A stretch of DNA of 64,000 nucleotides from contig JBBTRQ010000001.1 of NCBI GenBank assembly GCA_038065075.1, forward strand, positions 2,823 through 66,822, given 5' to 3'. Under the pieces are notes generated by a model. The model searched no databases. It worked only from the letters and a program-made list of their open reading frames with translations, and had not been told where the DNA came from. The first letter of the stretch is position 1, and the number at the start of each line of letters is the position of its first letter. This document shows, one piece after another, positions 22,928 to 63,574 of this stretch. This DNA comes from Patescibacteria group bacterium (GTDB taxonomy: Bacteria; Patescibacteriota; Patescibacteriia; UBA9934; GWF2-40-263). The position numbers and the translations under genes are program-made.

Positions 22928-22962
22928 GGTGAGCTCCTTACGGGAACAATTCCGTATCTTGT

Positions 22963-24205: not shown

Positions 24206-24283
24206 ATATATGCGAGCGACAGAGTAACACGGTGTGCACCCCTTTTCAAGAGCGGGTAGAATCGTTAGAATGAACCAGGAACT

Positions 24284-37980: not shown

Positions 37981-38015
37981 AAAAACACTCGTGAGTGATC
38001 ACGAGTGTTTTTGGT
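37981..38015. terminator. bidirectional intrinsic terminator shared by convergent tRNA-Met(+) and tRNA-fMet(-)
   Basis: aaaaa-CACTCGTG-agtgat-CACGAGTG-ttttt. Confidence 0.7.
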
Positions 38016-45894: not shown

Positions 45895-47259
45895 TTACGG
45901 AGTAATCCGATTAATCATCCTCGGGAACGGAATCGTCTCGCGCACGTGGTGCAATCCGCAGGTCCAGGCGACGATGCGCTCGAGTCCATAGCCGAAGCCG
46001 GAATGTGGAACCGAGCCGTAGCGGCGCAGGTCGAGGTACCAGTCAAAAGGTTTTGGATCGAGATTGTGTTCCGCAATGCGCTTCATAAGGGTCTCGTAGT
46101 CGTCCTCGCGCTGTGAGCCGCCGATGATCTCACCGTAGCCCTCTGGCGCGAGCAAATCGTTATTGAGTACGCGTGTGGGATCAGCTGGATCGCGCTTCAT
46201 GTAGAACGCCTTCACGGCCGCCGGATATTTCTCGACGAAGATCGGTGTCTCGTACTGCTGCGTGAGCCAGGTCTCGTCGTCGGCGCCCAAGTCGTCCATG
46301 TCCCCAATGTCACTTCCGTTGGCACGCAATTTCGCAATCGCCTCGGCGTGCGTGAGATGGACAAATGGCGCTTGGACTTTTTTGAGCGGCTCAACGTCGC
46401 GCTCCAGAACCTTCAGTTCGTACGCACAGTGCTCGAGAACGTCCGCGACGATGCGGCAGATGAGCGCCTCTTGAATCGCCATATTTCCTTCGTGCTCCAC
46501 AAACGCCGCTTCCGCGTCCATCATCCAGAACTCCGTGAGGTGACGACGTGTCTTAGATTTCTCCGCTCGGAACACCGGTCCAAAATCAAACGCTCGACCC
46601 AGACTCATGATCCCCGCCTCCAGATACAGCTGCCCTGACTGCGCGAGGTACGCCTTTCGGCCCCCCTCCTTTTCAAGGAGGGGCTGGGGGTGGTTATCAT
46701 CATCGACGAAGTAATCCATCTCAAACAGCTCGGTCGTGCCCTCACATGAGGTCGGTGTCAAAATCGGTGTGTCGAATTTTACAAATCCGTTTTCGTGGAA
46801 CCACTCGTAGGTGCTGGTGATAATTCGATCGCGGACACGCATCACCGCCCACTGGCTCTCGGCGCGCAACCAGAGGTGACGATTGTCGAGTAAGAAATCT
46901 GGGCCGTGCTCTTTCTTGCCCAATGGGTAATCTTCTTTTGGAATCTGGATCGGCTGAAAAAACGTGCCGGTCAGTTCAAACCCAGACGGTGAACGAGGCT
47001 CGGCTTTCACCACACCGCGCACCGTGACGGACGATTCAAGTTTCAATAAGTCCAATTGGTCCCATTGGTCCGATGGAATCTCGCTCTTGGAGAAAACCAC
47101 CTGCACGCGTCCACTCCCGTCGCGGAACTGTAAAAAGAAAATTTTTCCGCTGGAGCGGAAGTTGTAGCACCAGCCTTTAAGCTCGATCTCTTGACCGACG
47201 TGCTGACTGATTTCAGAAATCATTTTGTTGTGCATAGATTGCTTCGCTGTCGCTCGCAA
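45895..47259 (-). CDS. asnS: asparagine--tRNA ligase (class IIb) with an in-frame repeat-derived insertion (..DDDNHPQPLLEKEGG..)
   Basis: OB-fold N-terminus, KAYLAQSGQLYLE, RHLTEFWMMDAE, FPR C-terminus; the Asn versus Asp call rests on the SGQL/EFWM motifs. Confidence 0.75.
   Translation of the reverse strand: MRATAKQSMHNKMISEISQHVGQEIELKGWCYNFRSSGKIFFLQFRDGSGRVQVVFSKSEIPSDQWDQLDLLKLESSVTVRGVVKAEPRSPSGFELTGTFFQPIQIPKEDYPLGKKEHGPDFLLDNRHLWLRAESQWAVMRVRDRIITSTYEWFHENGFVKFDTPILTPTSCEGTTELFEMDYFVDDDNHPQPLLEKEGGRKAYLAQSGQLYLEAGIMSLGRAFDFGPVFRAEKSKTRRHLTEFWMMDAEAAFVEHEGNMAIQEALICRIVADVLEHCAYELKVLERDVEPLKKVQAPFVHLTHAEAIAKLRANGSDIGDMDDLGADDETWLTQQYETPIFVEKYPAAVKAFYMKRDPADPTRVLNNDLLAPEGYGEIIGGSQREDDYETLMKRIAEHNLDPKPFDWYLDLRRYGSVPHSGFGYGLERIVAWTCGLHHVRETIPFPRMINRITP
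46659..46692. repeat. C-run/N7/G-run/CTG/G5 palindromic element inserted in-frame in asnS
   Basis: ggcccccctccttttcaaggaggggctgggggtgg. Confidence 0.6.
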
Positions 47260-47278
47260 TGACGAGGACTAAAGAAGT

Positions 47279-48055
47279 CTAGCACACGCTACAGGCCGCC
47301 CTCAATGAGCTTGCGGGGATGACCGGAAAATGCGAAATCATGAGGGATTCGACAGCCTCGTGGTAGCCGGCAAGATCCTCGGCCCTGAGATGAGGGCGCA
47401 GATGTGACGCAAACCCTTCTTCGAGTCCAAAACGAACGAGTTTGAGGGCCTCGTCGGTCATAGGGCGAGCCGCGAACCACGTCTCTTGATCGACTCGCGT
47501 ACAGTTCGTGCAGACCACTCCCCCCTTGAGCCCATGCCACTGGTAGGAGCCGGGCGCGATCGTCTGTCGACAACCAAGACAGCGGTTCAGTTGCGGTCGG
47601 TACCCCACGAGCGACAACAGCTTGAGCGAAAACGCGCCGAGCAAAAATCCGGCACGCTCTCGCGAGATGCTTGTGTCTGAATCGAGAAATCCGAGCCAGT
47701 GTTCGATGAGCTCGTAAATGTGCGGATCGGTTTCGTCCGCGCGGGTGCCGATGTCGACTAGGTGCAGAGCGTTTTGTGCCAGGACGAGTCGCGAGAGATC
47801 GTCGTACACTCGACGGAAGCCTCGTCGCCGCTCCACCCCTGCCACGGTCTGGTACGCCCGCCCATGCACCAACAGGAGATCCACTACCGCCACCATCTCC
47901 AGATGCGGCGTGAGTTTTGCCAGCGGCTTATGCCCGCCGCGCGCAAGAAACTCCACCTTGCCATGCTCAGCGGTATAAACCGAATACCACCGGTCGACCT
48001 CTCTATGGTCACGTCGTGAGAGCACGATGCCGGTGGTATGGTAGAGCGAAGCCAT
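47279..48055 (-). CDS. recO: DNA repair protein RecO
   Basis: OB-fold N-terminus plus CLGC....C.NC zinc motif. Confidence 0.8.
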   Translation of the reverse strand: MASLYHTTGIVLSRRDHREVDRWYSVYTAEHGKVEFLARGGHKPLAKLTPHLEMVAVVDLLLVHGRAYQTVAGVERRRGFRRVYDDLSRLVLAQNALHLVDIGTRADETDPHIYELIEHWLGFLDSDTSISRERAGFLLGAFSLKLLSLVGYRPQLNRCLGCRQTIAPGSYQWHGLKGGVVCTNCTRVDQETWFAARPMTDEALKLVRFGLEEGFASHLRPHLRAEDLAGYHEAVESLMISHFPVIPASSLRAACSVC

Positions 48056-49011
48056 TAGTAAGGATACTGATCCTTCAACCGATCAGGGTCGATGGTGCGG
48101 TCAAAGCACACGCGCCCCATGCCGTGTGACCAGACGTCAAAGTTTTCACCCATGTATCCAAAGTCGTACATCATCGGGGTCGCGTAGATATTCTTGTCAG
48201 AGCCATCGGACTCCGTCATGAAGGTCGCACACAACTGGAAGGTTAACTCGCCTGTCACGGTGTACTCATAGGCCTCTGAGGACTCAGGGTCAGCCGGGTT
48301 GCGATAGCCGATGATGTCGTCTTCCATGGCCGCGAGATTCTCAGGCAGAGCCTCTTTATCGCGCCAATAGTCGATGAGGCTGGATTGAATGGTCTGCAGA
48401 TCGGAAACACGAGTCTGATCCAGACGTGCATCCCGTTGCTTTGCTGGACTGCCGACGACAAAGAGGCTGGCGGCAATCGCCACGACAATCACGATGGAAC
48501 TTGCAATGGCCGCCCACATGGTGACTTTCGTCATCTTGGCTGGTTCACGCTTGAGCTCCCAAAGGTAATACCAGAACACCGCGATGGAAACGAGGAGGAC
48601 GGCCAGAACCTTGAGACCAAAGCGAATGCTGATCTCCCCATCAAGATAAGTGTTGATGAGTGTGATGAGGTCGATGATGATCGCGAGCGCGGCCACGAAG
48701 ATCATAAGATGTAAGAGCCACTTGCGGATCCAGATATTTTGCTTGCCCTCATCTGCCCGCAGATCCTTGCCAATAAAAATCGACATGAGAATCATCACCG
48801 GCCAAGAAACGACAAGCGCAGAAATCGCGCCGCGAATCGCTTGGAGCGATCCCTCACGCCACCAGTAGTCCAGCTGATCTGGAAACTGGATGTTGATGTA
48901 CTGGAACAGAAGGGTCAAAAAACTCACCACGCCCACAATGAACATGGCGATGAGCAGAAGGTACGAAAAAACATCTCGGGCGGAGCTTTTTACAGAATGT
49001 TGTGTGGACAT
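48055..49011 (-). CDS. membrane protein (N-terminal multi-TM region, C-terminal extracytoplasmic domain; DUF5671-like)
   Basis: ORF track. Confidence 0.45.
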   Translation of the reverse strand: MSTQHSVKSSARDVFSYLLLIAMFIVGVVSFLTLLFQYINIQFPDQLDYWWREGSLQAIRGAISALVVSWPVMILMSIFIGKDLRADEGKQNIWIRKWLLHLMIFVAALAIIIDLITLINTYLDGEISIRFGLKVLAVLLVSIAVFWYYLWELKREPAKMTKVTMWAAIASSIVIVVAIAASLFVVGSPAKQRDARLDQTRVSDLQTIQSSLIDYWRDKEALPENLAAMEDDIIGYRNPADPESSEAYEYTVTGELTFQLCATFMTESDGSDKNIYATPMMYDFGYMGENFDVWSHGMGRVCFDRTIDPDRLKDQYPY

Positions 49012-49043
49012 ATATATATCTATCAGTATAGCAAAAAACGTCG

Positions 49044-49685
49044 TTACACGTGAGAGAGAATCTCCTCAACCAGACTCTCGTCGAGATCGGTCATATGAGT
49101 GCCATGACCCAGACCGTGACGTTCGATGAGGACGGTCGATGGGTTGAGACGATGAAGTTCGTGCACGCTATCCCACGACGGGCGATCATCGTCGTCACTG
49201 GCAACGAGCACGACTTTCTGGTTCGGTTTGATCGACGTGACCACGTCGTCGGTTTTCACACCGCGATAATCAAGACCTGGCGAGAGGGCAATGGCGAGTG
49301 GAAGACTCGAGTGTTCAGCAAGCGCGCGGATCGCCAGGTTGGCGCCGATCGACGCGCCGATAAGAATCGTGTGCGCGTCGTCGAAGCCGTGTTCTCGAGT
49401 CCATGCGAGCGCCGCCTCAAGGTCAAGTCGCTTCTGTTGCTGCTGCTCTGGCGTAAACGTCTTATAGCCGAGCGTACCACCCATCGTGCTCTCCCCGTGG
49501 CCTCTCATGTCTATCGCCAACGACGCATAACCATGCTCGAGAAGTTTTTTCGCGATCGAATCCCAGCTCTCCTTCGTCGAGGGCATCATGTGCAACAAGA
49601 TGGCGATCTTCTCCTGACCGTCGTGACGATAGATTCCAGCAAGCTCGATGTGGTCTTGGGTCGTGAGTGTGACAGACGAAGTCAT
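49044..49685 (-). CDS. alpha/beta hydrolase (dienelactone hydrolase-like)
   Basis: HG(GES) and IGASIGANLA nucleophile elbow. Confidence 0.7.
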   Translation of the reverse strand: MTSSVTLTTQDHIELAGIYRHDGQEKIAILLHMMPSTKESWDSIAKKLLEHGYASLAIDMRGHGESTMGGTLGYKTFTPEQQQQKRLDLEAALAWTREHGFDDAHTILIGASIGANLAIRALAEHSSLPLAIALSPGLDYRGVKTDDVVTSIKPNQKVVLVASDDDDRPSWDSVHELHRLNPSTVLIERHGLGHGTHMTDLDESLVEEILSHV

Positions 49686-49701
49686 ACAGAAGTTTCAGCA
49701 A

Positions 49702-49980
49702 CTAACGTTTTCGTGGCCCACGCAAGTCACCGAAACGACCTTGTTGGACTCGAATCTCACGGTTAAGAGCGCGCATTTGCTCCCGTAGTTCAAACAGGCG
49801 CGCCTGTAGGATTTCAAGCTCTTCGGGATCCTGTTCGTTTTTGATCTGTATCCCGAGCGAGTCAATTTCTTCGCTCATCGCCTTGAATTGCTCCTCCATC
49901 TTGAGAACTTCGGTTTCTCCAAACATAGCGGAAATCTCTTCCCCGCTCATTGGTGGCTTGTTTTTGTGTTCGTATTCCAT
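49702..49980 (-). CDS. hypothetical coiled-coil protein
   Basis: ORF track. Confidence 0.35.
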   Translation of the reverse strand: MEYEHKNKPPMSGEEISAMFGETEVLKMEEQFKAMSEEIDSLGIQIKNEQDPEELEILQARLFELREQMRALNREIRVQQGRFGDLRGPRKR

Positions 49981-50075
49981 ACGCAGCTATTCTACCAAAT
50001 CCCACGCTTGACGCCCCCCTGTTCTACGATAGCCTCTACGCGGCCACTCCCTTATTTTCTTCCCTCGGAGGTTCC

Positions 50076-50801
50076 GTGTCACTCCACATCAATGCTGACC
50101 CTGGTCAGATCGCTGGCACTGTCCTGTTCCCCGGCGACCCCCTGCGCGCCAAGCGCATCGCCGACGAGGTCCTGCGCGACGTCGTGCAGTACAACACCGT
50201 GCGCGGCATACTCGGATTCACGGGCGTGACCACCATCCCGAACTTCGGCGAAGTCCGCGTGTCGGTACAGGGATCGGGCATGGGAATGCCGTCCTTGTCG
50301 ATCTACGCCAACGAGCTCTTCAACGAGTTCGACGTGGAGACGATCATCCGCGTGGGCACCTGCGGAGGACTGCGGGACGACATGAAGCCGGGAGACCTGG
50401 TCATCGCCCAGGGCGCTTGCTCGGACTCCAACCTCAACCGCCGGCGGTTCAAGGGTCTCGACTTCGCGCCCCTGGCGGACGCCGACCTGTTCATCGCCGC
50501 GGTTCTCGCGGCCCGCGCGCGCGACTGGAAGATCCGCGCCGGCAACATCCTGAGCACCGACCTCTTCTACGCAGACCACGACCCGAACGAGTGGAAGATG
50601 TGGGCGGCCTCGGGCGTGATCGCGGTCGAAATGGAGACGGCGGAGCTGTACACGCTCGCCGCCCGCAAGGGTCGCCGCGCGCTGTCCGTCCTCACGGTCA
50701 GCGACGTCCTCCCCACCCACGAGGCCATGAACGCGCACGAACGCGAGACGAGCTTCCACCGCACGGTGGAGCTCGCCTTGGCCGCCGCCTTCGCGAAGTG
50801 A
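50076..50801 (+). CDS. deoD: purine nucleoside phosphorylase DeoD-type, GTG start with GGAGG RBS, GC3 > 90%
   Basis: Collinear with E. coli DeoD (HINA..G, GDPLRAK.IA, GMGMPS.SIY, IIRVGTCGG, VEMETA). Confidence 0.85.
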   Translation: MSLHINADPGQIAGTVLFPGDPLRAKRIADEVLRDVVQYNTVRGILGFTGVTTIPNFGEVRVSVQGSGMGMPSLSIYANELFNEFDVETIIRVGTCGGLRDDMKPGDLVIAQGACSDSNLNRRRFKGLDFAPLADADLFIAAVLAARARDWKIRAGNILSTDLFYADHDPNEWKMWAASGVIAVEMETAELYTLAARKGRRALSVLTVSDVLPTHEAMNAHERETSFHRTVELALAAAFAK

Positions 50802-50880
50802 TCGACGATCTCCACTGCTGCCCCGATCCTTCACGGACGGGGCGTTTAATTTTGGATAAAATCCAACAAGAATCCCTTCT

Positions 50881-51783
50881 GTGGTAACATACGCGTATAT
50901 GTTTACATCATTTGTTCGTCCGCTTGAGATCGGACTTTTTGCTCTCGTGTTTCTGGGAGTCGGTTGCTCAAGTACCCCGGTCCCTCTGCCGGGAACATGG
51001 AATTTCAATATGGAGGCATCTGCCACCAATCTCTCCGGGAGCGAGTGTGCCACGTCTGGTGGCTTTTCTTCCGGAGGTGAGGCTTCGGTGAACGTGAACG
51101 CACTTGGCGATATCGTAACTATGAATCTCAGCGGACAGACGATTGTCTTTTACGACCACCTTGCTCCTGGAGCTCAGTACAAAACCTATACGCGCACATT
51201 CCCGGTCTTAAACCCGGACGGAACGTCCGGAACAGGAAACGTCTGGTTTGATTTTACGGCCAACGATGAGGAAACACTCTCGGGAACATTGCATTGGAAC
51301 AACTTACGAGGATGTCGCGGAGATTATCCGTTTACCATGACTCTCTTGGAGCTTGAGCTCCCGGATCCTGGCCTGTACGTTCTCTCCGAGGGAACATGGG
51401 ACGTGAACATTGACAGTGTGGCCGACGACTGCGGCGCGGGAGCCGCGGGTATGACCGGCATCCCTGATCAGATCGATCTGAGTAATCCCGTTGATTTGGA
51501 TACCGGCGAGTCCATCACCGATGAACTCCTGCTCGATCCTTGGGGAGTCATCCTTGGTCGAGTGGCGAATACGAATGTCTTCACTCTAGGATCAGGGCCA
51601 AGTTTTGATCCTGGCTTACCACAGGATGCCGATGGGGATGTGAACCTCGACTTTGAAGATGTGACGTTCGATGCCACCATGGAAATGTGGGCCGATGGCC
51701 CTGACTCCGCCCTGGGAACCATCTATGCCTCCGGCGGGGGGTGCAACATCACGATGATGGTCAACATGAGCTTCAGCCCCTAA
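50881..51783 (+). CDS. secreted hypothetical protein
   Basis: N-terminal hydrophobic signal, Gly/Asp/Thr-rich. Confidence 0.45.
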   Translation: MVTYAYMFTSFVRPLEIGLFALVFLGVGCSSTPVPLPGTWNFNMEASATNLSGSECATSGGFSSGGEASVNVNALGDIVTMNLSGQTIVFYDHLAPGAQYKTYTRTFPVLNPDGTSGTGNVWFDFTANDEETLSGTLHWNNLRGCRGDYPFTMTLLELELPDPGLYVLSEGTWDVNIDSVADDCGAGAAGMTGIPDQIDLSNPVDLDTGESITDELLLDPWGVILGRVANTNVFTLGSGPSFDPGLPQDADGDVNLDFEDVTFDATMEMWADGPDSALGTIYASGGGCNITMMVNMSFSP

Positions 51784-51804
51784 AATCCCCCATGAGGGGG
51801 ACTT
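51782..51804. terminator. palindromic repeat family 1 hairpin (aaaaTCCCCCatgaGGGGGActt) between convergent genes
   Basis: Seen in sequence. Confidence 0.55.
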
Positions 51805-51806
51805 GG

Positions 51807-53264
51807 CTACTTGAGAAGCGTGGAGAGATCCAGGGTTTGATCGAAACGAATTTGTCGGACAAATTCCTCGGCGTGACTCACCACCAGCATACATCCTTGG
51901 TAGTCATTGAGTGCCTTGGCGATCACGGGAAGATGCCGAAAGTTAATGTGATTGGTCGGCTCGTCAAAGATAAGCAGTCCGGGTGCTTGAAGCACGAAGC
52001 GCGCAAAACACAGCAAGCCCTTTTGCCCCTCTGAAAGCGCCCCCACGGGAGTCGCCAGCGCGTCCCCGTCCAGCAAGAACTGCGCGCCTGTTCGACGAAT
52101 GGTTTCGTTATCCGGTTGCTCCATGACTTCAGAGAGTGAAGCGTAAGCGGTCTGGGAAAAATTCAATCCAGAAAAATCTTGTCGATAATACCCCACCTTC
52201 ACCCCCGGCGCAATCATCGCTCCCGGTGAATCTCCCTGTGCCAACGATCGCAACAGCGTGCTCTTTCCAATGCCGTTGGGACCCGCAACCAATAGATGCG
52301 TTCCACGACGCAACGACAGATCCACCTCCACATCATGCGCCTCATGGTCGCGGATTACTTTAATGGAACTCAGTCGCACGACCTCTTCGGTAAACGGTTG
52401 CGCGGGAATAGTGAAGTCCTTGATCGTTCGATCATCACGTCGCACATCCACCATGTTCTCTTCTGCTTCCGCGACCTCTTCGCGGAGCTTGCTGGCGAGC
52501 TTGCGCATCTTGCCTCCTTTGTGCGCAAAAAAGTTTACCTTGTCTTTGCGATCTTGAATGGTCTTCAAGAGCTGGGCGTTCTTTGCGCGATCGCGCTCCA
52601 CGCGCGCGGCGATCTCCTCCACCACGTCCGTATAATTTCCGTCGTACTTCTCGACCTTCCCTGTGTAGACATCCAAGTGCAGGACGCCCTCCGTGAAACT
52701 GTTCAAGAAATCGGCATCGTGTGAAATGACCAAGACCGTTTTGGGATACATGATGAGGAACATCGTGAGGTGATCGATCCCCTCGCGGTCAAGATTGTTG
52801 GTCGGCTCGTCGAGCAACAGAATGTCGGGCTCTTGAATGAGCGCGTAGGCCAGGAGAAGTCGCGCCTGCTGACCGCCCGAAAACGATCCCACCAGCTTCT
52901 CCAAGGGCGCGGTCAGATTCACCACCTCCAAAATGTCGGCAATCCGCTTATCAAGATTGTAGGGGACGTCGAGAAACGCTTGTGCAAAGTACTCGCGCAC
53001 GTTCAGAGTCAAACACTCACGCGCCATCACCTGCTTTGCCGTGGCAATGGTCGCGCCCGAAGAAAGATGCACCTGACCATAATCGGGTTTCACCTCGCCC
53101 GTGATGAGTTTAAAGATCGTGCTCTTGCCCGCGCCATTTTGACCCATGAGGGTCAGCTTCGCGTCTTCGCGAACAGAAAAACTCGCCTCATCCAAAATGG
53201 GGCTCTCTGAAATGTATCCGAAGGACACGGTTTCAAAGCGCAAGACGATATTTCCTGATGCCAT
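51807..53264 (-). CDS. ABC-F family ATPase (two ABC domains, no TMD)
   Basis: Two Walker A (GQNGAGKST, GPNGIGKST), two LSGGQ signatures, inter-domain linker. Confidence 0.85.
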   Translation of the reverse strand: MASGNIVLRFETVSFGYISESPILDEASFSVREDAKLTLMGQNGAGKSTIFKLITGEVKPDYGQVHLSSGATIATAKQVMARECLTLNVREYFAQAFLDVPYNLDKRIADILEVVNLTAPLEKLVGSFSGGQQARLLLAYALIQEPDILLLDEPTNNLDREGIDHLTMFLIMYPKTVLVISHDADFLNSFTEGVLHLDVYTGKVEKYDGNYTDVVEEIAARVERDRAKNAQLLKTIQDRKDKVNFFAHKGGKMRKLASKLREEVAEAEENMVDVRRDDRTIKDFTIPAQPFTEEVVRLSSIKVIRDHEAHDVEVDLSLRRGTHLLVAGPNGIGKSTLLRSLAQGDSPGAMIAPGVKVGYYRQDFSGLNFSQTAYASLSEVMEQPDNETIRRTGAQFLLDGDALATPVGALSEGQKGLLCFARFVLQAPGLLIFDEPTNHINFRHLPVIAKALNDYQGCMLVVSHAEEFVRQIRFDQTLDLSTLLK

Positions 53265-53325
53265 AGGCGGACACGATAGCGGATATTTCTCAAAACCTCA
53301 AGAATACGGCATGATAGAGAGAAAT

Positions 53326-54492
53326 ACACATCCTATGAGTCAACGCGCCTCCTTCATCGTTTCCCTGCTTGAATCCGCCGACATTCGTGTAAACGGCTCG
53401 CGGCCGTGGGATCTTCTCGTCCATGACGAGCGGGTGTTTGATCGCACGCTTGCAGAGGGGTCGCTGGGGTTTGGGGAGAGCTACATGGACGGCTGGTGGG
53501 ACTGCGAGGCATTGGATGAAATGCTCACGCGGGTATTTCGGTCCGACATCGACCGTCGCGTTCGAAACTGGCGCACGGCTCTGCGCGTTCTGGGCGCCCG
53601 CGCGCGAAACGCTCAGCGCAAGTCCAAAGCGTTTGAGATCGGTGAACGCCATTACGACGTCGGCAACGATCTCTACAAACAGATGCTCGACCCACGCATG
53701 ACCTACACGTGCGGATACTGGAAGAATGCGAGCGACCTCGCGAGCGCGCAGGAAGCAAAGCTCGACCTCGTGTGTCGCAAGATCGGACTGAAGCCGGGGA
53801 TGCGCGTCCTGGACATCGGATGTGGATGGGGATCGTTCGCCATCTATGCCGCGCAGAAGTACGGCGTGGAAGTCGTGGGTGTCACCGTCTCGAAAGAACA
53901 AGTCGCGCTGGCAACCGAGCGCGGCCGAGGACTGCCGATCGAATTTCGATTGCAGGATTACCGCGACGTGACCGGAACGTTCGATCGTATTGTGTCGCTG
54001 GGAATGTTCGAACACGTCGGCTACAAAAACTATCGAACGTACATGGAAGTGGCTCATCGACTGCTCCCTATCGAAGGACTCTTCTTGCTCCACACCATCG
54101 GCGGTAATCGTTCCGTGCACACCACAGACGCCTGGATCGAAAAGTACATCTTCCCAAACTCGATGCTACCGTCGATCGCGCAGATCGGAAGTTCCACCGA
54201 AGGCCTGTTCGTGATGGAAGACTGGCACAACTTCGGCACCGACTACGACAAGACCCTTCAGTGCTGGTACAAAAACTTTGAGGCCGCCTGGCCGGGACTC
54301 GCCGATCACTACGGCGACCCTTCGACGGAGCTCAGGGTCGGCCTGAGCCAGTCGAAGGCCGAACGCTTCCACCGCATGTGGCGTTTCTATCTTCTCTCCA
54401 GCGCCGCCACCTTCCGCGCGCGAAACAATCAGCTGTGGCAAGTGGTGTTAAGTAAGGACGGGCTCAAGAATAGCTATCAGTCGATACGTTGA
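53326..54492 (+). CDS. cfa: cyclopropane-fatty-acyl-phospholipid synthase (start 53326 or 53301; the track ORF start at 53146 overlaps the ABC-F gene)
   Basis: Collinear with E. coli Cfa: GESYMDGWW, VLDIGCGWG SAM motif, LL..GL..L.H. Confidence 0.8.
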   Translation, partial: THPMSQRASFIVSLLESADIRVNGSRPWDLLVHDERVFDRTLAEGSLGFGESYMDGWWDCEALDEMLTRVFRSDIDRRVRNWRTALRVLGARARNAQRKSKAFEIGERHYDVGNDLYKQMLDPRMTYTCGYWKNASDLASAQEAKLDLVCRKIGLKPGMRVLDIGCGWGSFAIYAAQKYGVEVVGVTVSKEQVALATERGRGLPIEFRLQDYRDVTGTFDRIVSLGMFEHVGYKNYRTYMEVAHRLLPIEGLFLLHTIGGNRSVHTTDAWIEKYIFPNSMLPSIAQIGSSTEGLFVMEDWHNFGTDYDKTLQCWYKNFEAAWPGLADHYGDPSTELRVGLSQSKAERFHRMWRFYLLSSAATFRARNNQLWQVVLSKDGLKNSYQSIR

Positions 54493-54522
54493 CGGCCGTG
54501 AGGGATCCCTTGCGCGGCCGTA

Positions 54523-54551
54523 TTGACATCACTGAGAGATTCGTGAATGAT
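54523..54551 (+). promoter_or_regulatory. sigma70-like promoter (TTGACA-17-AATGAT) and GGGAGG RBS upstream of the tandem-HTH gene
   Basis: Seen in sequence. Confidence 0.4.
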
Positions 54552-54583
54552 CGCTTGGGACAACACTGGCAAACGTCAGGGAG

Positions 54584-55645
54584 GTGATGATGGCCAAACA
54601 CATCAACTGGACACCCGGGATGGATGAGCGGCTCATCGTGCTCAACCGCGAACGCGTGTTCTTCCGTCTCATCGCGGAGGCCCTCGTGGTTCCGCTCGCC
54701 AGCGTGCACCGTCGCGTAAAGGTTCTTGACGCGCGGGGGCTCATCTCCGCGAACGAGGTCAGTCGATACTTCCCTCGCACCAAGCAGACTGTCTTCAAGT
54801 CCAGGGGACCCACCAAGTGGACGCCGGATCGGCTCGCGCGCGTTTCCGAACTCTACCGGAACGGGCACAGCAATGAGCAGATCACGACATTGCTCGGTGA
54901 GACCTGCTCGGCCATTCGAGGCCAGGTGCGCCTGCTGCGCAAACGCGGGGAGCTGCCAAGCGGGCCGCGACCGAGTCGGCACAGTGCACGCCCAAACCGG
55001 CGGATCTTCACCACACAGATGGATGAAACGCTCATCCAACTCCACCCAAGCAAGAGCCGGAATGAAATCGCGCAGGCTCTGGGCGTAACGCCCCGCCAAG
55101 TGACTACGCGTGCCAGCCAACTGCGCAAGCTGGGACATCTAGAGCCCTCGAAGATCGGAGTGGCACAACGCCGCGAAACGATCATCCGCCTGTACCGCGA
55201 TGGCCAGTCCATCGTGCAGATCGCGAAGGCGATCGGATCTACCCCCGGCGCGATTGGTGTCTCCTTGGTCAGATACCGCAAGCAGGGGTGCGTTGGAACC
55301 CGGCCGCGGCCATACACCGCCAACCGTAGCCACAAGGTCGACATGGAAACGGTTGTTGAGATGACATTGAACCACGTCTCCACCGCACAGATAGCGCAGT
55401 ACTTCGGGGCCTCCGAGCACACGATCCTCAAGCACGTCCAGCGGCTCCGCCGCGATGGAACGCTCCCGCGCCCAACGCGCGTCTGGACGAAGGAGCGCAC
55501 GCGACGACTGGTAACGCTCTACGGGAGACGCACGAAGATCCGCGTGATCGCACGCCTGCTGAACGTGAGCGAACGCGCCGTCGCTCACAAGCTCACGCGA
55601 CTGCGGAAGAAAAACCAACTCCCGAGCCGCAACGTCCGCCCGTAA
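54584..55645 (+). CDS. protein of five tandem about 60-aa GcrA-like HTH repeats (353 aa), GTG start
   Basis: Repeats W(T)..R...L..LY..G.S...IA..LG.T..AV..K..RLR..G.LP; high GC3. Confidence 0.5.
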   Translation: MMMAKHINWTPGMDERLIVLNRERVFFRLIAEALVVPLASVHRRVKVLDARGLISANEVSRYFPRTKQTVFKSRGPTKWTPDRLARVSELYRNGHSNEQITTLLGETCSAIRGQVRLLRKRGELPSGPRPSRHSARPNRRIFTTQMDETLIQLHPSKSRNEIAQALGVTPRQVTTRASQLRKLGHLEPSKIGVAQRRETIIRLYRDGQSIVQIAKAIGSTPGAIGVSLVRYRKQGCVGTRPRPYTANRSHKVDMETVVEMTLNHVSTAQIAQYFGASEHTILKHVQRLRRDGTLPRPTRVWTKERTRRLVTLYGRRTKIRVIARLLNVSERAVAHKLTRLRKKNQLPSRNVRP

Positions 55646-55666
55646 CAAGGGCGGTTTTTTGTTGGA
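55635..55666 (+). terminator. intrinsic terminator CCGCCC-gtaacaa-GGGCGG-TTTTTT after the tandem-HTH gene
   Basis: Seen in sequence. Confidence 0.7.
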
Positions 55667-55673
55667 CGTAATC

Positions 55674-55713
55674 CAAACAAACATCCCCCTCGTGTGAGGG
55701 GGATGTTTGTTTG
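55674..55713. repeat. palindromic repeat family 1 copy with a 16-bp perfect stem (caaacaaacaTCCCCCtcgtgtgaGGGGGAtgtttgtttg)
   Basis: Seen in sequence. Confidence 0.6.
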
Positions 55714-55719
55714 TCTTTT

Positions 55720-57342
55720 CTATTTAGCACCGCTGATTAATGTCTTTTCATCTAAAACGGAATCGATAACTCCTTCCTGAAAATAGAACGCCTGAATCTT
55801 TTTAAGCGCGGACAAAAATTCCCGCGTGTACGATTTGAGAAACCGTATTTTTTGCATAGCCATCTCAACTTCCTTTTGTGAAATTCCCATCATTGAGGCA
55901 ACGGAAGTGTTTGTCTTAAATCGCGCCCCGTGAAGAAGAGCCTCCCCCCAAATAGCGTTGAGTTTTTGAATCACGTCTTTGTGGTCTCTGATATATGACT
56001 TCTTGGTGATCAGAACATCGTACAAAATCTGATTTTCTTTTTCTTTGGTTGAGGCCACAATTTTTGCCCCTGAAAGTTCAATAGCTTTTGAAAGCCAGGG
56101 ATCCCATAATACCGCTGCGTCCACATCACCCCGGATCAAAGCTGACCCGATGTCACCCCCAAGCAGAGAAACCTCTTGAACGTCATCCGGAGAAAGGTGG
56201 TGAGCGTGCAAAAGATACCGTAAAAAGAAGTGACTCACGGCCTCACGTTCAATCCCCACTTTTCGTCCTTTCAAGTCCTGCACTCTCTCAATCCCGGGCT
56301 GAGCAATGATGGCGTCTCCCCCGTGTGAGTAGTTGAGTGGAAGAACGATCTGAAGTTCTGGATGTTCGTGAACGGCGCGAACGGCGTAATCCAATGTCAC
56401 GTTCAAGACATCTACCTCATCTCCCAAGAGCATTTCAAGATTCCCAACATTTGAGTCTGTCGAAACTAAGTGCGTTTCCAATCCCTTTTTTTCAAAGATA
56501 CCCTGATCGTGGGCATAGTACCAAGGAGCATTCCCCGACCAAATGAAGAGCCCTAGGTTACAGACCTCGGCCTTGGTTTTTTCCTTGCGCAACGAGGCCT
56601 TTATCGATTCAGCTCGGATCGTATAGACAATGCTCTTCTTCAGTCGGACAAACGCCGGAGAGAAGACCATCTCTGTTGTTCGAGGCCGTGGAAGGTTCAC
56701 GACTATTTCTTGCTGGAGTGCCCCTGTGTCCGCACTGAGAATCAATACCCGATCGGCCAAAAAAATCGCTTCATCGATATCGTGCGTCACAAAGATGATC
56801 GTTTTTTGTTGCTGTCTCCAAAGATCCAGAAGCTGTTCTTGAATTTGAGCTCGTGTTTGAACATCAAGAGCGCCAAATGGTTCATCGAAAAAGATCACCT
56901 CGGTGTTCTGCAACAAGACCCTAGCGATAGCCACTCTCTGACGCATTCCGCCTGACAGCTGACCTGGAAAATAATCCCGGACAGAAAATAGCCCAAGCTG
57001 CTTGAGTGTACTACTGATCAGCCCTTCATCAGCTTGAAGGTTCCCCAGTTGAACATTTTGCCAAACCGTTAACCAAGGAAAATTGGAATACTCTTGCGAA
57101 ACGAATCCAGCTGATTTTTGTGAGAAATACCTGTCTCGAGTCTCTCCGTCGATACGCACCTCTCCTTCACAGTCTGTATCCATTCCAGAAAGACAGCGCA
57201 AAAGCGTGCTCTTCCCTGAACCACTCGAACCCACAATGCAAACGAACTCTCCTTTTTTTACACGAAAAGAAATGTCGTTCAATACGACGCGCCTCCCCGA
57301 TTCTGAATCATACGTTTTTTTGAGTCCAGTCACCTCAATCAT
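55720..57342 (-). CDS. ABC transporter ATP-binding protein (SsuB/TauB/ThiZ-like) fused to a C-terminal NMT1/THI5-like substrate-binding-fold domain
   Basis: Walker A GSSGSGKST, LSGGMRQR, FDEPFGALD; C-terminal 280 aa NMT1-like. Confidence 0.8.
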   Translation of the reverse strand: MIEVTGLKKTYDSESGRRVVLNDISFRVKKGEFVCIVGSSGSGKSTLLRCLSGMDTDCEGEVRIDGETRDRYFSQKSAGFVSQEYSNFPWLTVWQNVQLGNLQADEGLISSTLKQLGLFSVRDYFPGQLSGGMRQRVAIARVLLQNTEVIFFDEPFGALDVQTRAQIQEQLLDLWRQQQKTIIFVTHDIDEAIFLADRVLILSADTGALQQEIVVNLPRPRTTEMVFSPAFVRLKKSIVYTIRAESIKASLRKEKTKAEVCNLGLFIWSGNAPWYYAHDQGIFEKKGLETHLVSTDSNVGNLEMLLGDEVDVLNVTLDYAVRAVHEHPELQIVLPLNYSHGGDAIIAQPGIERVQDLKGRKVGIEREAVSHFFLRYLLHAHHLSPDDVQEVSLLGGDIGSALIRGDVDAAVLWDPWLSKAIELSGAKIVASTKEKENQILYDVLITKKSYIRDHKDVIQKLNAIWGEALLHGARFKTNTSVASMMGISQKEVEMAMQKIRFLKSYTREFLSALKKIQAFYFQEGVIDSVLDEKTLISGAK

Positions 57343-58093
57343 ACTTTCTGTAAGGAAAGAATACGGGATACAACCTCTTAAACACCTGGTCGATCACAAG
57401 TCCAATGATTCCCAGTGTCAGAATCGCAACGTAAACTTTTTCTGTGTTGGAAAACCGTTGTGCCTCTTTGATCACATGTCCGATTCCTGCCTGGGCCGCA
57501 ACAAGTTCCGCGATCACGAGGTAGGTCCAGGCCCATCCCAACGTAATGCGGGCATTGTTGTACAGCTCAGGCAAAATGGCACGCAGCCTAAGAACTCTCA
57601 CTCGCATTCGTGAGAACCCCAATGAAAAAGAGAGGTCGAAGTATCTCGATGGAATGGTGTAGATGTCATCAATAACAAGAAGAATGAGTTGAAAAAATGT
57701 TCCGATAAACAGCAAAGCAATTTTCGATCCTTCTCCTAAACCAAAGAATAAAATCGTTAATGGAATCAACGCGGGAACAGGGAGGTAGCGAATGAAATCG
57801 ATGTACGGTTCAAGTAATCGTTTGACGAATGCAAACTCGGTCATGAGAAGCGCTAGTGGAATCGCGATAACGAACGCTAAAATGAAAGCAGAAAAAACAC
57901 GAAAGACAGAAATCCCAATATCTGATAAAAATTCTTTTTGAACAAACAAATCTAGTGTCGCCAACCAAATTTGCGACGGAGATGGAAGAAAGAGCGAATC
58001 GATCAGTCCCGCTCGCGTCACCCACCACCACACACAAATGAAAAAAAGCAGAGAGACAAGAAACGGCCAGTTCGCTCTCTGCTTTTTATTCAT
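57335..58093 (-). CDS. ABC transporter permease (SsuC/TauC/ThiX-like)
   Basis: 6 TM, EAA-like loop. Confidence 0.8.
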   Translation of the reverse strand: MNKKQRANWPFLVSLLFFICVWWWVTRAGLIDSLFLPSPSQIWLATLDLFVQKEFLSDIGISVFRVFSAFILAFVIAIPLALLMTEFAFVKRLLEPYIDFIRYLPVPALIPLTILFFGLGEGSKIALLFIGTFFQLILLVIDDIYTIPSRYFDLSFSLGFSRMRVRVLRLRAILPELYNNARITLGWAWTYLVIAELVAAQAGIGHVIKEAQRFSNTEKVYVAILTLGIIGLVIDQVFKRLYPVFFPYRKYD

Positions 58094-58110
58094 ACCCCTC
58101 CTTCTATCGT

Positions 58111-59094
58111 TTAGAATGATCGGATGATGGTATCTGTGAGGTGATCCTCAGCACGAATGCGAAGCGTTGCTCCTCCATTAGCTTCAAGGATGTCTCCAAC
58201 GAGCTCGAATGTATCGTAGGCATTGAATTCTGACGATGGATCAAAAAGAACCTTGTTCTCTTCAAGATCTAACCAACTGACACCCGTCTTAAAGTCAGCC
58301 ATTTCTTGTGCGCTCACCTCGAATGCGGTGCCCATAATCTCGTTCGCCTCATCAGGGTTTGACTTCCAGTATTCAACCGCATCAAACCACCCTTGAGCAA
58401 TAGTCCGAAGAACCTCTGGACGTGATTCAACCAGATCTTCAGAGGCGAAGAGAAAGTCCACAATAAGCTTTGGCGTATCCGCACTCGAGACAAGAACTTT
58501 TGCACCGGCAACCTTGCTTGCACTTTCAGAAAGGTAGGGCTCGTAGGTGGCGGCCACATCAAGCTGGCCCGCGACGAAGGCGTTTCCTGCGTCCTGAGAA
58601 GTCACATCTCGAAATTCGACATCATCCAGAGTCATACCCTCTTTATTGAGGAGATACTGCAAAATGAAATGCGGTGGAAATCCAGGTTCCGCACCAACGG
58701 TTTTACCTCGCAGATCCGAAAGCGAGTTAATGCCTTCTCGAACAACGACCCCATCTCCCCCATGGGACTCGTCGACGGCTAAGAAGGCAACCCCAGGTGG
58801 CTCAACCCCTTCCGTGGCTTCAAAAATATCATAGGTTGCTGCGTACATATCGATGTCTCCCGTCTTCATCGCCGCACGAAGATCTCCGATAGATTCAATG
58901 CGAACCAACTCAACAGTGAGATCTGACCCCCATAGCTCCTTTTCTTGTGCGAGATACAAAGGGGCATAGCCCGGGAATGTCACCATTCCAATCTTCACAG
59001 AATCCTTAGATGTTTCTGGGTTCTGAAAGGCAACGACCCCTAACACAACGACGATAACGATTACTAATAAACCGACGAAAAAGTTCTTGTTCAT
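58111..59094 (-). CDS. NMT1/THI5-like periplasmic substrate-binding protein (SsuA/ThiY-like)
   Basis: Signal anchor; NMT1-fold motifs. Confidence 0.75.
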   Translation of the reverse strand: MNKNFFVGLLVIVIVVVLGVVAFQNPETSKDSVKIGMVTFPGYAPLYLAQEKELWGSDLTVELVRIESIGDLRAAMKTGDIDMYAATYDIFEATEGVEPPGVAFLAVDESHGGDGVVVREGINSLSDLRGKTVGAEPGFPPHFILQYLLNKEGMTLDDVEFRDVTSQDAGNAFVAGQLDVAATYEPYLSESASKVAGAKVLVSSADTPKLIVDFLFASEDLVESRPEVLRTIAQGWFDAVEYWKSNPDEANEIMGTAFEVSAQEMADFKTGVSWLDLEENKVLFDPSSEFNAYDTFELVGDILEANGGATLRIRAEDHLTDTIIRSF

Positions 59095-59924: not shown

Positions 59925-60085
59925 ACAAATAATCCCGATGGGTCATGACTTATCCTCATCATCGAGGCAACATTGTAACGCCTTTTCGTATATTTTTCAA
60001 TGTACTTTCATGGTATTCCTATACGGAAACTTGATTATTTAGGTATTTGTTGCTATAATTGTGTATATAGAATCTATACACTTTA

Positions 60086-60840
60086 TGTCTATAAACGACC
60101 GGCTTGGACAAATTGGACTCAATCAGAGCGAGACAAAGGCATACTTGTTTCTTTTGGAACACGGCCTTTCCTCCCCCACGGCCATTGCCAAAGGAGTCGG
60201 GATACAACGGCCAAACGCCTATCAAGTTATCCATTCATTGTTACAACGTGGGCTCATCCTTGAGCAGAAGCAAGGCGGGCGAAGAGCCTACCTCACAGGT
60301 GACCCCGAGGCTCTCCTGATTGGTCTGGAACAAAAAAAGGCGCTGATCGACTCCCTACTACCCGATCTGCGCGGACTTCGGAATTTGCAGAAAAACAAAC
60401 CCACGGTTCAGTACTTCGACGGGCTGTCGCAAATTCAGGACATTTACCTGATGGCGTTGGAATCAGATGAACTCCTCGCTCTGGGATCGACCGACCGGCT
60501 CTATCAGATCATGCCATCCTTCGTTGAGGGTTGGTTGTCAAAGCTCAAAAAGAAAGGCATCGTCCTACACGATATTGTGACGCATGTCTCGAGTAGTGAG
60601 GCGGCGCACAAGATGATCGCCTCGCTTAAGGGGTACTACGATGCGAAGGTTCTGCCCAAGACGAGCGGTGAACTAACAACCGACATCCTTATTTGGGATA
60701 ACCATCTCGCCCTCATTACGCTTGAGGAGCCCTACTTTGGAACAGTGATCACAAACTCATCGCTTGTAAACACCTTCCGTCAGATTCTTAGCATTTTGCG
60801 CAGTGCTCTAGATAAAGTAGAGACATCTGTCCAAACCTAA
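60086..60840 (+). CDS. TrmB-family transcriptional regulator (start at MSINDRLGQ..)
   Basis: N-terminal wHTH ..SETKAYLFLLEHGLSSPTAIAKGVGIQRPNAYQVIHSLLQRGLI. Confidence 0.65.
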
Positions 60841-61122
60841 ATCCCCCTCGTGTGTGAGGTGTGCGCCACATGAGGCGCAAGTGATCTCCGTTCTCACACC
60901 GTCTGCATCCAGTGTGCGTTTCACAGCGCCGGGAATCTCGTCATCAAAACTTGGCCACCCGCAGTGGGCGTCGAATTTATCTGCAGAGCGATACAACGGC
61001 GCGCCGCATTGTCGACACACATACGTCCCTGCCGCTGTTGTGTCGACATACTCACCGCTAAACGGCGCCTCGGTACCTTTGTCGAGGATGACGTACTGTT
61101 CTTCTGGGGTGAGTTCGATCAT
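60808..61122 (-). CDS. msrB: peptide-methionine (R)-S-oxide reductase MsrB with a divergent C-terminus (repeat-derived)
   Basis: Two CxxC zinc pairs, CGWPSF; C-terminal ..HLTHEGDLGLDRCLYFI encoded across a family 1 repeat copy. Confidence 0.75.
   Translation of the reverse strand: MIELTPEEQYVILDKGTEAPFSGEYVDTTAAGTYVCRQCGAPLYRSADKFDAHCGWPSFDDEIPGAVKRTLDADGVRTEITCASCGAHLTHEGDLGLDRCLYFI
60841..60862. repeat. half-degenerate palindromic repeat family 1 copy (aaaTCCCCCtcgtgtgtgagg) embedded in the msrB 3' end / trmB-like stop overlap
   Basis: Compare with 55684-55707. Confidence 0.5.
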
Positions 61123-61269: not shown

Positions 61270-61605
61270 ATGATTGAAGACTCCTCCTGGCGCCGAGAAC
61301 TTTACGCCCTTCTGAAAATCGCGGGGAAAGACGCCGACCTCTTGAAAGACGTCCTGAATGACCTGCTCACTCCTGAAGAAATCTCCGTTCTGGCACAGCG
61401 GTGGCAGATCGTGAAAGGACTCGCCCAAAACAGGCCACAGCGCGAAATCGCTGAAGAACTCGGAGTCGGTATTGCGACAGTCACACGTGGAGCACGATTA
61501 CTCAAAAAACCTCAAGGCGGCCTACGCCGCATGATCGATATGATCCATTCAACCAAAACCTTCCGAGGACTTCCCAAGTCCTGGCGCGACCAACTCATGG
61601 AATAG
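61270..61605 (+). CDS. TrpR-like YerC/YecD-family DNA-binding protein
   Basis: LLTPEEISVLAQRWQIVKGL..QREIAEELGVGIATVTRG. Confidence 0.75.
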   Translation: MIEDSSWRRELYALLKIAGKDADLLKDVLNDLLTPEEISVLAQRWQIVKGLAQNRPQREIAEELGVGIATVTRGARLLKKPQGGLRRMIDMIHSTKTFRGLPKSWRDQLME

Positions 61606-61680: not shown

Positions 61681-62265
61681 ATGCACGTTCGTCTTCTCAC
61701 CTCCATCCCCTCCCTCCATGACGCCATCCTCTCCGCCTCGGAGGGGTTCGGCCAGCCCATCGACCAGGCATTGAGTCTGGACGTGGCACAACACCTGGAC
61801 GCCTGCGGCTTCGGCTTCCAGTTCCTGACCGACGAGAACGAGATCGCCGGCTTCACTCTGTTCAAGCACTACGGCTCACTGCTGTACGGCGGCGGCATGA
61901 TGATCCGCCCCGCCTTCCAGAAGTCGGGTCTCGTCCGGCAGGGCATCCTGCTCGCGCAGGAACACACCCACGCCCGCCACTTCGCCTTCCGCACCCAGTC
62001 GCCGCGGATGTGGTCCGCCGGCCGTCGCGTGACCCGGCTGTGGTCGCCCACGCCCGAGCAGGGATTCTTCCACCCCGAGCTCGACGAGGTGCGCTCCATC
62101 GCGGCTGACCTCCTGCACATCAAGCCGACGGTGACGCGCGCGGTGTTCGACCGCCCGCTCTACGGGCAGAAGCCCACGCACCTGAATCCCGCCATCCAGA
62201 CGTGGTGGGACTCGATGTGCGACTTCGACAAAGGCGACATGGTTCTGTGTGTCGGCGCGTTCTAA
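61681..62265 (+). CDS. hypothetical protein, possibly GNAT-fold acyltransferase; GC3 very high
   Basis: ORF track; weak GNAT motif A (RPAFQKSGL). Confidence 0.3.
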   Translation: MHVRLLTSIPSLHDAILSASEGFGQPIDQALSLDVAQHLDACGFGFQFLTDENEIAGFTLFKHYGSLLYGGGMMIRPAFQKSGLVRQGILLAQEHTHARHFAFRTQSPRMWSAGRRVTRLWSPTPEQGFFHPELDEVRSIAADLLHIKPTVTRAVFDRPLYGQKPTHLNPAIQTWWDSMCDFDKGDMVLCVGAF

Positions 62266-63046: not shown

Positions 63047-63070
63047 AAAAATCCCCCGCGAGGGGGATCT
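63047..63070. terminator. palindromic repeat family 1 hairpin (aaaaaTCCCCCgcgaGGGGGAtct) between convergent genes
   Basis: Seen in sequence. Confidence 0.55.
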
Positions 63071-63359
63071 AGGAAACGGTCACCTTGAGTTTTGCTTCTA
63101 AAGCATCGGCGACTTTGTAAAGGAACCCGACGGTTGGGTTGTATGTCCCGGACTCGAATCGAGAGATTGCCGCCTGCTTGGTGCCGATCATCTGTGCGAG
63201 CTGACCTTGCGTCACACCCTTCTTGAGTCGTCTGTCGATTAACATCTGGATCACGGCAAACTCCGGACCCAGCTCGTCGTAGGCCTTCTTTACGATCTTG
63301 TCTGTCAGGAATTTCTTTTTGAGAGACGTATACGATTTCATACATTTTGAATATAACAC
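63069..63359 (-). CDS. XRE-family HTH protein (HigA-like antitoxin)
   Basis: ..LKKGVTQGQLAQMIGTKQAAISRFESG.. Confidence 0.7.
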   Translation of the reverse strand: MLYSKCMKSYTSLKKKFLTDKIVKKAYDELGPEFAVIQMLIDRRLKKGVTQGQLAQMIGTKQAAISRFESGTYNPTVGFLYKVADALEAKLKVTVS

Positions 63360-63545: not shown

Positions 63546-63574
63546 AAAAATCCCCCCGCGAGGGGGTTTTAAAA
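63546..63574. terminator. palindromic repeat family 1 hairpin (aaaaaTCCCCCCgcgaGGGGGtttt) immediately after the stop of the 63569..63832(-) gene
   Basis: Seen in sequence. Confidence 0.55.

Follow-up and report, generated by a model that had tools for sequence, protein, structure and literature searches.

What kind of protein is encoded at positions 54590 to 55645 of the 64,000-nucleotide (nt) Patescibacteria stretch analyzed here (hereafter, the window), and is its gene a newcomer from a phage or plasmid? The initial annotation described a 353-amino-acid (aa) product with five tandem GcrA-like helix-turn-helix (HTH) repeats and proposed a multivalent DNA-binding protein of horizontal origin. 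We found six divergent HTH repeats of ~55 aa each, one having been overlooked, in a product that is most likely 351 aa long. According to sequence profiles and structural models, nearly all of this product consists of tandem GcrA_N-like HTH modules, in agreement with multivalent DNA binding. In contrast, the proposed horizontal origin was not supported by comparison with an orthologous locus (see below). On sequence grounds, the host is a Candidatus Uhrbacteria bacterium (candidate phyla radiation [CPR]/Patescibacteria): its class II aminoacyl-tRNA synthetase (aaRS; 45898-47259) shares 81% identity with the enzyme of a Candidatus Uhrbacteria metagenome-assembled genome, and the remaining best matches of this enzyme are from Uhrbacteria and Patescibacteria. 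An identical copy of the six-HTH protein is recorded at NCBI as a "helix-turn-helix domain-containing protein" of a Patescibacteria group bacterium (MEK7619662.1), and the contig name of an identical protein on record points to Hainich groundwater.

The repeats were delineated manually and then aligned with MAFFT. Their boundaries are given below in the 353-aa numbering of the longest open reading frame (ORF), together with their scores in a leave-one-out test.

54590 to 55645, plus strand: coding sequence of the six-HTH protein, 351 aa from the ATG at 54590; stop codon TAA at 55643-55645
54602 to 54754, plus strand: HTH repeat 1 (R1), residues 7-57; 13.8 bits, maximum of its own shuffles 7.4 bits
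54812 to 54964, plus strand: HTH repeat 2 (R2), residues 77-127; 33.6 bits
55001 to 55147, plus strand: HTH repeat 3 (R3), residues 140-188; 26.5 bits
55154 to 55303, plus strand: HTH repeat 4 (R4), residues 191-240; 26.5 bits
55331 to 55474, plus strand: HTH repeat 5 (R5), residues 250-297; 26.0 bits
55478 to 55630, plus strand: HTH repeat 6 (R6), residues 299-349; 38.9 bits

In the leave-one-out test, each repeat was scored with a hidden Markov model (HMM) built without that repeat and without its orthologue, and 500 composition-matched shuffles of each repeat served as the control. The six real repeats reached 13.8 to 38.9 bits, versus a maximum of 9.4 bits for the shuffles. Pairwise identity between repeats of one protein is low (14 to 35%). 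The similarity of the repeats is not due to low complexity.

Structure prediction gave a corresponding picture. When the full-length protein was modeled with AlphaFold2 from its single sequence, six units of the type helix (~12 residues)-helix (8)-turn-helix (13) were obtained. The predicted local distance difference test score (pLDDT) was ~75 to 88 in the units and below 50 in the intervening segments, and the predicted template modeling score (pTM) was 0.25; the predicted full-length structure is beads on a string. Predicted helices span residues 11-22, 27-34, and 38-50 in R1; 144-151, 159-166, and 170-183 in R3; 254-262, 267-274, and 278-291 in R5; and 303-314, 319-326, and 330-342 in R6, which has the top pLDDT of the full model. 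R2 modeled alone, with the six repeats as the alignment, reached a pLDDT of 92 and a pTM of 0.76. In Foldseek searches, this single-repeat model superposed on DNA-bound NarL (1je8) with 1.7 Å across 47 residues and matched the HTH domains of NarL, DosR, Lrp, and BirA with TM scores of 0.64 to 0.73 and probabilities of 0.95 to 0.99; the LiaR HTH was also among the superposing structures. The full-length model retrieved nothing from the PDB at E ≤ 0.001 (best ~0.08), which is expected of a beads-on-a-string model.

The protein is strongly basic (isoelectric point 11.74, net charge +46). The linkers between the repeats are 30, 23, 6, 20, and 11 residues long. Four of the five are basic and contain proline, with two to seven Lys and Arg residues each, the exception being the 6-residue linker 3. 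No domain other than HTH was detected in the 351 aa with Pfam, NCBIfam, PHROGs, or PADLOC.

Profile searches also supported the HTH prediction. The whole protein exceeded the cutoffs of the generic Pfam families HTH_28 (61.1 bits, cutoff 25; E = 1e-16), HTH_23 (47.8 bits, cutoff 24.6), and Sigma70_r4_2 (46.6 bits, cutoff 25.7). Among the single repeats, only R4 was above a Pfam cutoff (HTH_28, 29.9 bits, cutoff 25). The best Pfam match of R1 alone was MarR_2 (21.8 bits), R3 alone matched HTH_Crp_2 and HTH_24, both below threshold, and R6 alone gave 22.4 bits with Sigma70_r4_2. The top family in any library searched was phrog_323, "transcriptional regulator, D5-like" (153.9 bits, E 1.5e-44, four stretches), with a score that is summed over repeats and belongs to a library, PHROGs, without curated cutoffs.

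Three known types of protein contain comparable modules. The first is GcrA, whose resemblance to the repeats had been pointed out in the initial annotation. At the profile level this is borne out: the six-repeat profile matched residues 2-47 of the GcrA DNA-binding domain (DBD) with 96.2% in hhalign (E 2.4e-9, 36% identity), and the repeat motif W-T-x-E/D-R...L...G.S..QIA..LG....A(V/I)..K(V)..L is homologous to GcrA residues 1-45. Only one repeat, R2, matched Pfam GcrA on its own, with 18.2 bits below the cutoff of 26.9. R2 is both the most GcrA-like and the most conserved repeat.

The second type is represented by the crenarchaeal proteins Cbp1 and Cbp2. The second HTH of Cbp2 matched the six-repeat profile with 94% in hhalign (E 1.4e-7, 33% identity). 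Cbp2 was also the best sequence match of a solved structure (2lvs_A, phmmer E 0.004), two consecutive repeats aligning with both Cbp2 repeats. Residues 198-340, comprising three repeats, aligned with positions 6-134 of the 135 positions of NCBIfam HTH_Cbp1 (NF040595), which is almost the whole profile. Like the six-HTH protein, Cbp1 and Cbp2 are built only of imperfect HTH repeats in tandem, each tri-helical (homeodomain-like), on basic flexible linkers; in contrast, they have two to three repeats instead of six. For Cbp2, multivalent binding is demonstrated: a basic linker that is protected by DNA tethers both HTH modules, and the site comprises ~25 bp (PMC3597662). According to its authors, the nearest structural relatives of Cbp2 are the multi-HTH domains of the Myb and paired types (PMC3597662). 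Myb, paired (Pax), and Reb1 proteins resemble the six-HTH protein in having two to four tandem tri-helical HTHs per chain that read adjacent major grooves. This analogy is at the level of architecture alone, since those proteins have fewer modules and extra domains, and the Foldseek matches of the full-length model to Reb1 (5eyb), paired (1pdn and 6pax), and Tc3 (1u78) were insignificant (E > 0.09).

The third type is D5 of phage T5 (AAS77164, 255 aa), a full-length member of phrog_323 (242.8 bits). It likewise contains HTH-like units, four in number (Pfam HTH matches at residues 32-68, 71-100, 144-188, and 204-230), which follow a period of ~55 to 60 residues. The six-HTH protein differs in being more basic, in having six units, and in its chromosomal, syntenic location without phage context. 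T5 D5 is annotated as a dsDNA-binding protein that is required for replication and late transcription (AAS77164; McCorquodale 1979, as cited in PMC12630848).

The six-HTH protein belongs to a wider set of proteins. An exhaustive HMMER search returned 323 cluster representatives at E ≤ 1e-3, from cells and phages. The best 150 of them mostly contain 3 to 12 modules with a median spacing of ~55 aa, as counted with the repeat HMM, and the 49 best gave matches to generic HTH Pfam families only. Apart from two orthologues (P0002 and P0153), these relatives are at most 34% identical to the six-HTH protein and vary in repeat number and added domains. We viewed the loci of distant multi-HTH homologues in L085 (2959-3606) and L087 (3801-8295). 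The gene of an 11-repeat member (P0003) has a topoisomerase gene on one side and the S10 ribosomal protein operon on the other, and that of a 12-repeat member (P0005) has another multi-HTH gene, of 215 aa, after it. Several Firmicute-like members have a common non-HTH C-terminal region, and in P0006 the region preceding the repeats has, by eye, a MucR/Ros-like look. In the literature library searched, no paper on such a class of tandem, multi-, or poly-HTH proteins turned up. To our knowledge, its only studied examples are Cbp1/Cbp2 with two to three modules and T5 D5 with about four. The six-module CPR protein is an uncharacterized but fairly common architecture, kin to the tandem-HTH binders Cbp1, Cbp2, and T5 D5.

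Close relatives are few. P0002 and P0153 were the only two orthologues found among 5.8 and 1.8 billion sequences. They are 268 aa each and ~45% identical to the six-HTH protein (P0002, 47%), and their four repeats are colinear with R1 to R4, R5 and R6 having no counterpart. A word-index homologue search with the six-HTH protein returned only the protein itself; with a two-sequence profile, this search added one further four-repeat orthologue. A profile search of genome contigs with the alignment of the six-HTH protein and P0002 yielded no relative.

The orthologues show how the repeats evolved. Orthologous repeats are 46 to 54% identical (50% for R1 of the six-HTH protein and R1 of P0002), more than the 14 to 34% of paralogous repeats. 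Thus, the repeats diverged long before the species split, each position keeping its identity. R5 and R6 did not arise by recent duplication, since neither exceeds 34% identity with another repeat (R5, at most 29%). In the three orthologous sequences, the recognition helices were best conserved, with 51% invariant positions versus 36 to 38% in the other helices and the linkers; 10 of 13 positions (77%) were invariant in R2 and 8 of 13 (62%) in R4. This pattern suggests that each repeat position may read its own conserved DNA sub-site.

The contig of P0002 (L001) is colinear with 46514-49685 of the window, a block that encodes the aaRS, RecO, a DUF5671 protein, and an alpha/beta-hydrolase. Nucleotide identity in the block is 75 to 81%, and translated segments are ~55 to 88% identical. 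In L001, the P0002 gene lies directly 3' of the hydrolase gene, and the gene downstream of it differs from that in the window. In the window, a segment of 4.9 kb (49686-54583) that is absent from L001 separates the hydrolase gene from the six-HTH gene. It contains genes for a PNP_UDP_1 phosphorylase (G+C content at third codon positions [GC3], 0.84), ABC-F, and cyclopropane-fatty-acyl-phospholipid synthase (cfa) and two ORFs without family. By sequence and gene order, the six-HTH gene is resident in the lineage and borders a variable region.

We propose that the protein is a multivalent double-stranded DNA (dsDNA) binder, a single chain of six HTH modules with an architectural (nucleoid-associated) or broad regulatory role, and give this reading a probability of about 0.6. 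DNA binding is proposed because the module is homologous to those of proven HTH DNA binders and because the layout of beads on basic linkers is that of Cbp2. The six tri-helical modules of GcrA_N/Cbp/T5-D5 type would fold independently on short, Arg-, Lys-, and Pro-rich disordered linkers. One polypeptide would engage dsDNA multivalently, the third (recognition) helix of each module entering the major groove, while the basic linkers may track the DNA backbone or the minor groove, as in the arrangement known from two-module Cbp2 and from paired/Myb proteins. Extrapolated from the ~25 bp of the two Cbp2 modules, the footprint of six modules could be ~60 to 75 bp of contiguous DNA; alternatively, they might bridge separate DNA sites. 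The analysis establishes the gene structure, the six repeats, a predicted HTH fold, the charge, the lineage, the synteny, and the conservation of the repeats by position; DNA binding, its geometry, and the cellular role are what we infer for this protein. No ligand-sensing, oligomerization, or enzymatic domain was found with the family libraries, and an architectural, nucleoid-associated or broad regulator is therefore likelier than a classical signal-responsive repressor.

Several observations weigh against this proposal. All structural evidence is predicted, and the full-length model was made from a single sequence. The conservation statistics are weak, coming from three orthologous sequences only. 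By tblastn and the six-frame repeat HMM, the gene was absent near the aaRS gene in 80 other CPR genomes. It also diverges faster (~45% protein identity) than the neighboring genes for RecO, DUF5671, and hydrolase (~55 to 88%). This fast divergence and the difference between four and six repeats are explained no less well by a non-essential or conflict-related role than by a core nucleoid one. The 91-bp upstream region contains no direct or inverted operator-like repeats, and the 10-mer GTCGATACGT, which is common to the leader of the orthologue, is not enriched (8 matches versus 4.4 expected). A MAFFT alignment of the upstream regions of the six-HTH gene and the orthologue was unconvincing. 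Finally, the 64-kb window contains no tandem or CRISPR-like array.

Other explanations start from the same matches. Cbp1 covers the repeats of CRISPR arrays and shapes how these arrays are transcribed. By analogy, the six-HTH protein could bind one repeated genomic element, with each HTH or HTH pair on one repeat unit. The matches to Cbp2 and to nearly the whole HTH_Cbp1 profile, the HTH modules on basic linkers in both, and the position-specific conservation of the recognition helices, which fits a defined composite site, all speak for such a binder. However, the HTH_Cbp1 score (32.4 bits) is far from the family cutoff of 140, the window holds neither a CRISPR array nor a tandem or interspersed repeat family as a target, and Cbp1 and Cbp2 are crenarchaeal, whereas the present host is a CPR bacterium. 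We consider this explanation unlikely. A reading as a defense system was rejected, the PADLOC matches spanning just the HTH portions of CARF/Csa3 proteins. A GcrA-type sigma-70 cofactor, acting on RNA polymerase and reading (methylated) promoter DNA in the way that GcrA prefers m6A-methylated GANTC sites, would agree with the hhalign match to the DBD and with the marginal pass of the whole protein in Pfam GcrA (PF07750; 33 bits, cutoff 26.9). But that match reaches only positions 2-106 of the 155-position profile, and the match to PDB 7ye1_G is limited to chain residues 2-67, that is, to DBD and linker; NCBIfam sig70cofacGcrA (NF050816) gave 31.8 bits (cutoff 280). In GcrA, a long linker connects the DBD (residues 1-45) with a sigma-70-interacting domain (SID) at the C-terminus, which carries the zinc motif C-X14-C-X9-C-X2-H and contacts domain 2 of sigma-70 (PMC5887438). 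The six-HTH protein has just two cysteines, so that a SID of this type cannot be present. In contrast to GcrA with its one DBD and SID, it contains six DBD-like modules and lacks a SID, and it is therefore not a member of the GcrA family, though built of GcrA_N-like modules. Judged by sequence, the missing SID effectively refutes a cofactor of this kind. The three-helix bundles might also form an RNA-binding or protein-scaffolding array instead of a DNA binder. SelB winged-helix repeats bind SECIS RNA, and the full-length model gave weak Foldseek matches to winged helices 1 to 4 of SelB and to the winged-helix repeats of UFL1/DDRGK1; extreme basicity is also typical among RNA-binding proteins. 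Yet those matches had E values of ~0.08 to 0.3 and TM scores of 0.17 to 0.27, the single-repeat model fits DNA-bound HTHs, and the sequence profiles give DNA-binding families only. An array of this sort is very unlikely. There is hardly any chance that the protein derives by decay or domestication from the DNA-binding region of an IS630/Tc1-type transposase. Residues 196-256 did align with positions 1-60 of the 299 positions of NCBIfam transpos_IS630 (NF033545), and the Foldseek matches include the bipartite HTH domains of Tc3 and Mos1. However, the score of 43.9 bits is far under the cutoff of 100, no DDE catalytic domain was detected with Pfam or NCBIfam, no terminal inverted repeats flank the gene, no second copy was found in the window by tblastn and the six-frame repeat HMM, and three intact orthologues exist.

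The initial annotation had suggested a possible phage or plasmid origin. In this case, the gene would be a recent import or a prophage remnant, and its product might be a cooperative dsDNA switch of transcription and replication as in T5 D5. Consistent with this, phrog_323 is the top family, and a BFVD fold search matched 25 phage proteins at E ≤ 1e-3 over ~150 to 400 columns, including a D5 protein of a Vibrio phage and many uncharacterized proteins. In addition, the regions flanking the gene differ among relatives, the protein evolves fast, and GC3 is slightly high. The GC3 value (0.774 versus 0.657 ± 0.058 in 32 upstream genes) is indeed high, as first described, but not alien: z is only 2.0, two genes have higher values, and the P0002 gene has a similar one (0.762). 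Compositional horizontal transfer of the gene was therefore rejected. The contrast to the flanking genes is due mainly to the downstream ABC importer operon, which is the compositional outlier (GC3, 0.47 to 0.48; rest of the window, ~0.66). No integrase, transposase, or phage gene was found within ~9 kb of the six-HTH gene, the neighbors of which encode Cfa, ABC-F, the ABC importer, RecO, and the aaRS. When 50,697 phage genomes were searched by tblastn, only three marginal matches (E ~6e-4) to a three-HTH Serratia phage protein were obtained, and a scan of viral contigs gave nothing. Direct similarity to T5 D5 was insignificant by BLASTP (E 0.055), and in hhalign D5 reached 20% (E 1e-3, 25% identity) with the six-repeat profile. 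Moreover, homologous arrays occur in core chromosomal contexts, such as that between the topoisomerase gene and the S10 operon. Since the orthologue lies beside the same aaRS-RecO-DUF5671-hydrolase block and has a similarly elevated GC3 and a similar promoter and ribosome-binding site, mobile genes are lacking nearby, and the phage and viral searches were nearly empty, recent acquisition is unsupported, and we regard it as quite improbable. What is shared with phages is the multi-HTH architecture, not this gene.

The proposed multivalent dsDNA binder seems to be expressed from a unit of its own, delimited by the following features.

54523 to 54551, plus strand: sigma-70-type promoter-like site; TTGACA at 54523-54528, 17-nt spacer, AATGAT at 54546-54551
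54579 to 54584, plus strand: Shine-Dalgarno sequence GGGAGG, read from the sequence, with a spacing of 5 nt to the ATG at 54590
55636 to 55660, plus strand: intrinsic terminator CCGCCC-GTAACAA-GGGCGG (G+C-rich hairpin, 55636-55654) followed by TTTTTTG; six G-C pairs, 7-nt loop, T-run
55674 to 55713, no strand assigned: perfect 18-bp inverted repeat (100% complementary) between the six-HTH gene and the convergent ABC gene

The longest ORF (54584-55645, plus strand) starts with GTG and encodes the 353 aa described initially. This ORF exists, but its GTG at 54584 is overlapped by the GGGAGG ribosome-binding site. We took the ATG at 54590 as the start, because three observations agree: the spacing of 5 nt, the 351-aa length of the identical database copies (P0001, P0151, and P0152), and the alignment of the resulting N-terminus with the orthologue start MSKRIEWT. 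By these sequence comparisons, the ATG is most likely the true start. The promoter motif and the ribosome-binding site noted at the outset are both present. The promoter-like site has 10 of 12 consensus matches and is the only such site in 53000-57500, but 2.2 are expected by chance in these 4.5 kb, so that the one observed is not above chance. The call is supported by the orthologue, which has a similar site (TTGACA-17-TAAGTA) at a nearly equal distance, ending 37 nt before the start codon compared to 38 nt in the window, and also has GGAGG 4 nt ahead of its GTG start. The site at 54523-54551 may function as the promoter of the six-HTH gene. At the other end, the stop codon falls inside the loop of the terminator hairpin, and the inverted repeat at 55674-55713 is probably a bidirectional terminator. 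With its own promoter-like site, a strong Shine-Dalgarno sequence, and terminators, the six-HTH gene is a self-contained monocistronic unit. Hairpins of the type A(T)CCCCC-nnnn-GGGGGAT recur at gene ends in the window (51781-51805, 55672-55713, 60830-60859, 63047-63071, and 63547-63571) and are probably a family of intrinsic terminators typical of the lineage.

Other features of the window were also recorded. In the ABC importer operon (55720-59094, minus strand), a permease gene is accompanied by genes for a stand-alone NMT1-like binding protein and for an ATPase that carries a fused NMT1/THI5-like substrate-binding domain; the operon is a candidate for horizontal acquisition. The 194-aa ORF at 61681-62265 (plus strand; GC3, 0.90) has no match in Pfam or NCBIfam; a Trp-repressor-like gene (61270-61605) and a TrmB-like regulator gene (60061-60840) lie upstream of it. 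At 38012-38351 (minus strand), ARAGORN with introns allowed detected a tRNA-Met(CAU) gene whose anticodon loop is split by a group I intron of 263 nt; the gene was missed with default settings. Rfam Intron_gpI matched at 38078-38281 (56.1 bits, gathering score 50). Next to this split gene lie tRNA-Leu(CAA) and another tRNA-Met(CAU) that is not interrupted. The region 20319-24242 contains two tRNA-Val(CAC) genes on the minus strand (20319-20395 and 24129-24205), three ORFs between them without Pfam family, and a 72%-identical partial copy of tRNA-Val(CAC) with its flank at 21738-21851. It may represent scars of tRNA-targeted integration.

The regulatory repertoire of Patescibacteria is small and poorly understood, and the six-HTH protein, if its modules read DNA one by one, would be a candidate nucleoid or transcription organizer in these bacteria. 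As it stands, it is a well-defined protein of DNA-binding type and not a surprising new system. A more far-reaching idea, which we consider a long shot, is that GcrA_N-type arrays of 3 to 12 modules are modular, position-specific DNA readers, with a short sub-site of its own for each module, that are retuned by module gain or loss, with a possible major chromatin organizer in the present, genome-reduced host. If true, such arrays would be prokaryotic equivalents of zinc-finger or Myb arrays, and four versus six modules would alter the length and identity of the composite target. Should the six modules indeed read DNA one by one, the protein would offer a tractable case for studying the way in which multivalent HTH arrays select long or clustered sites.

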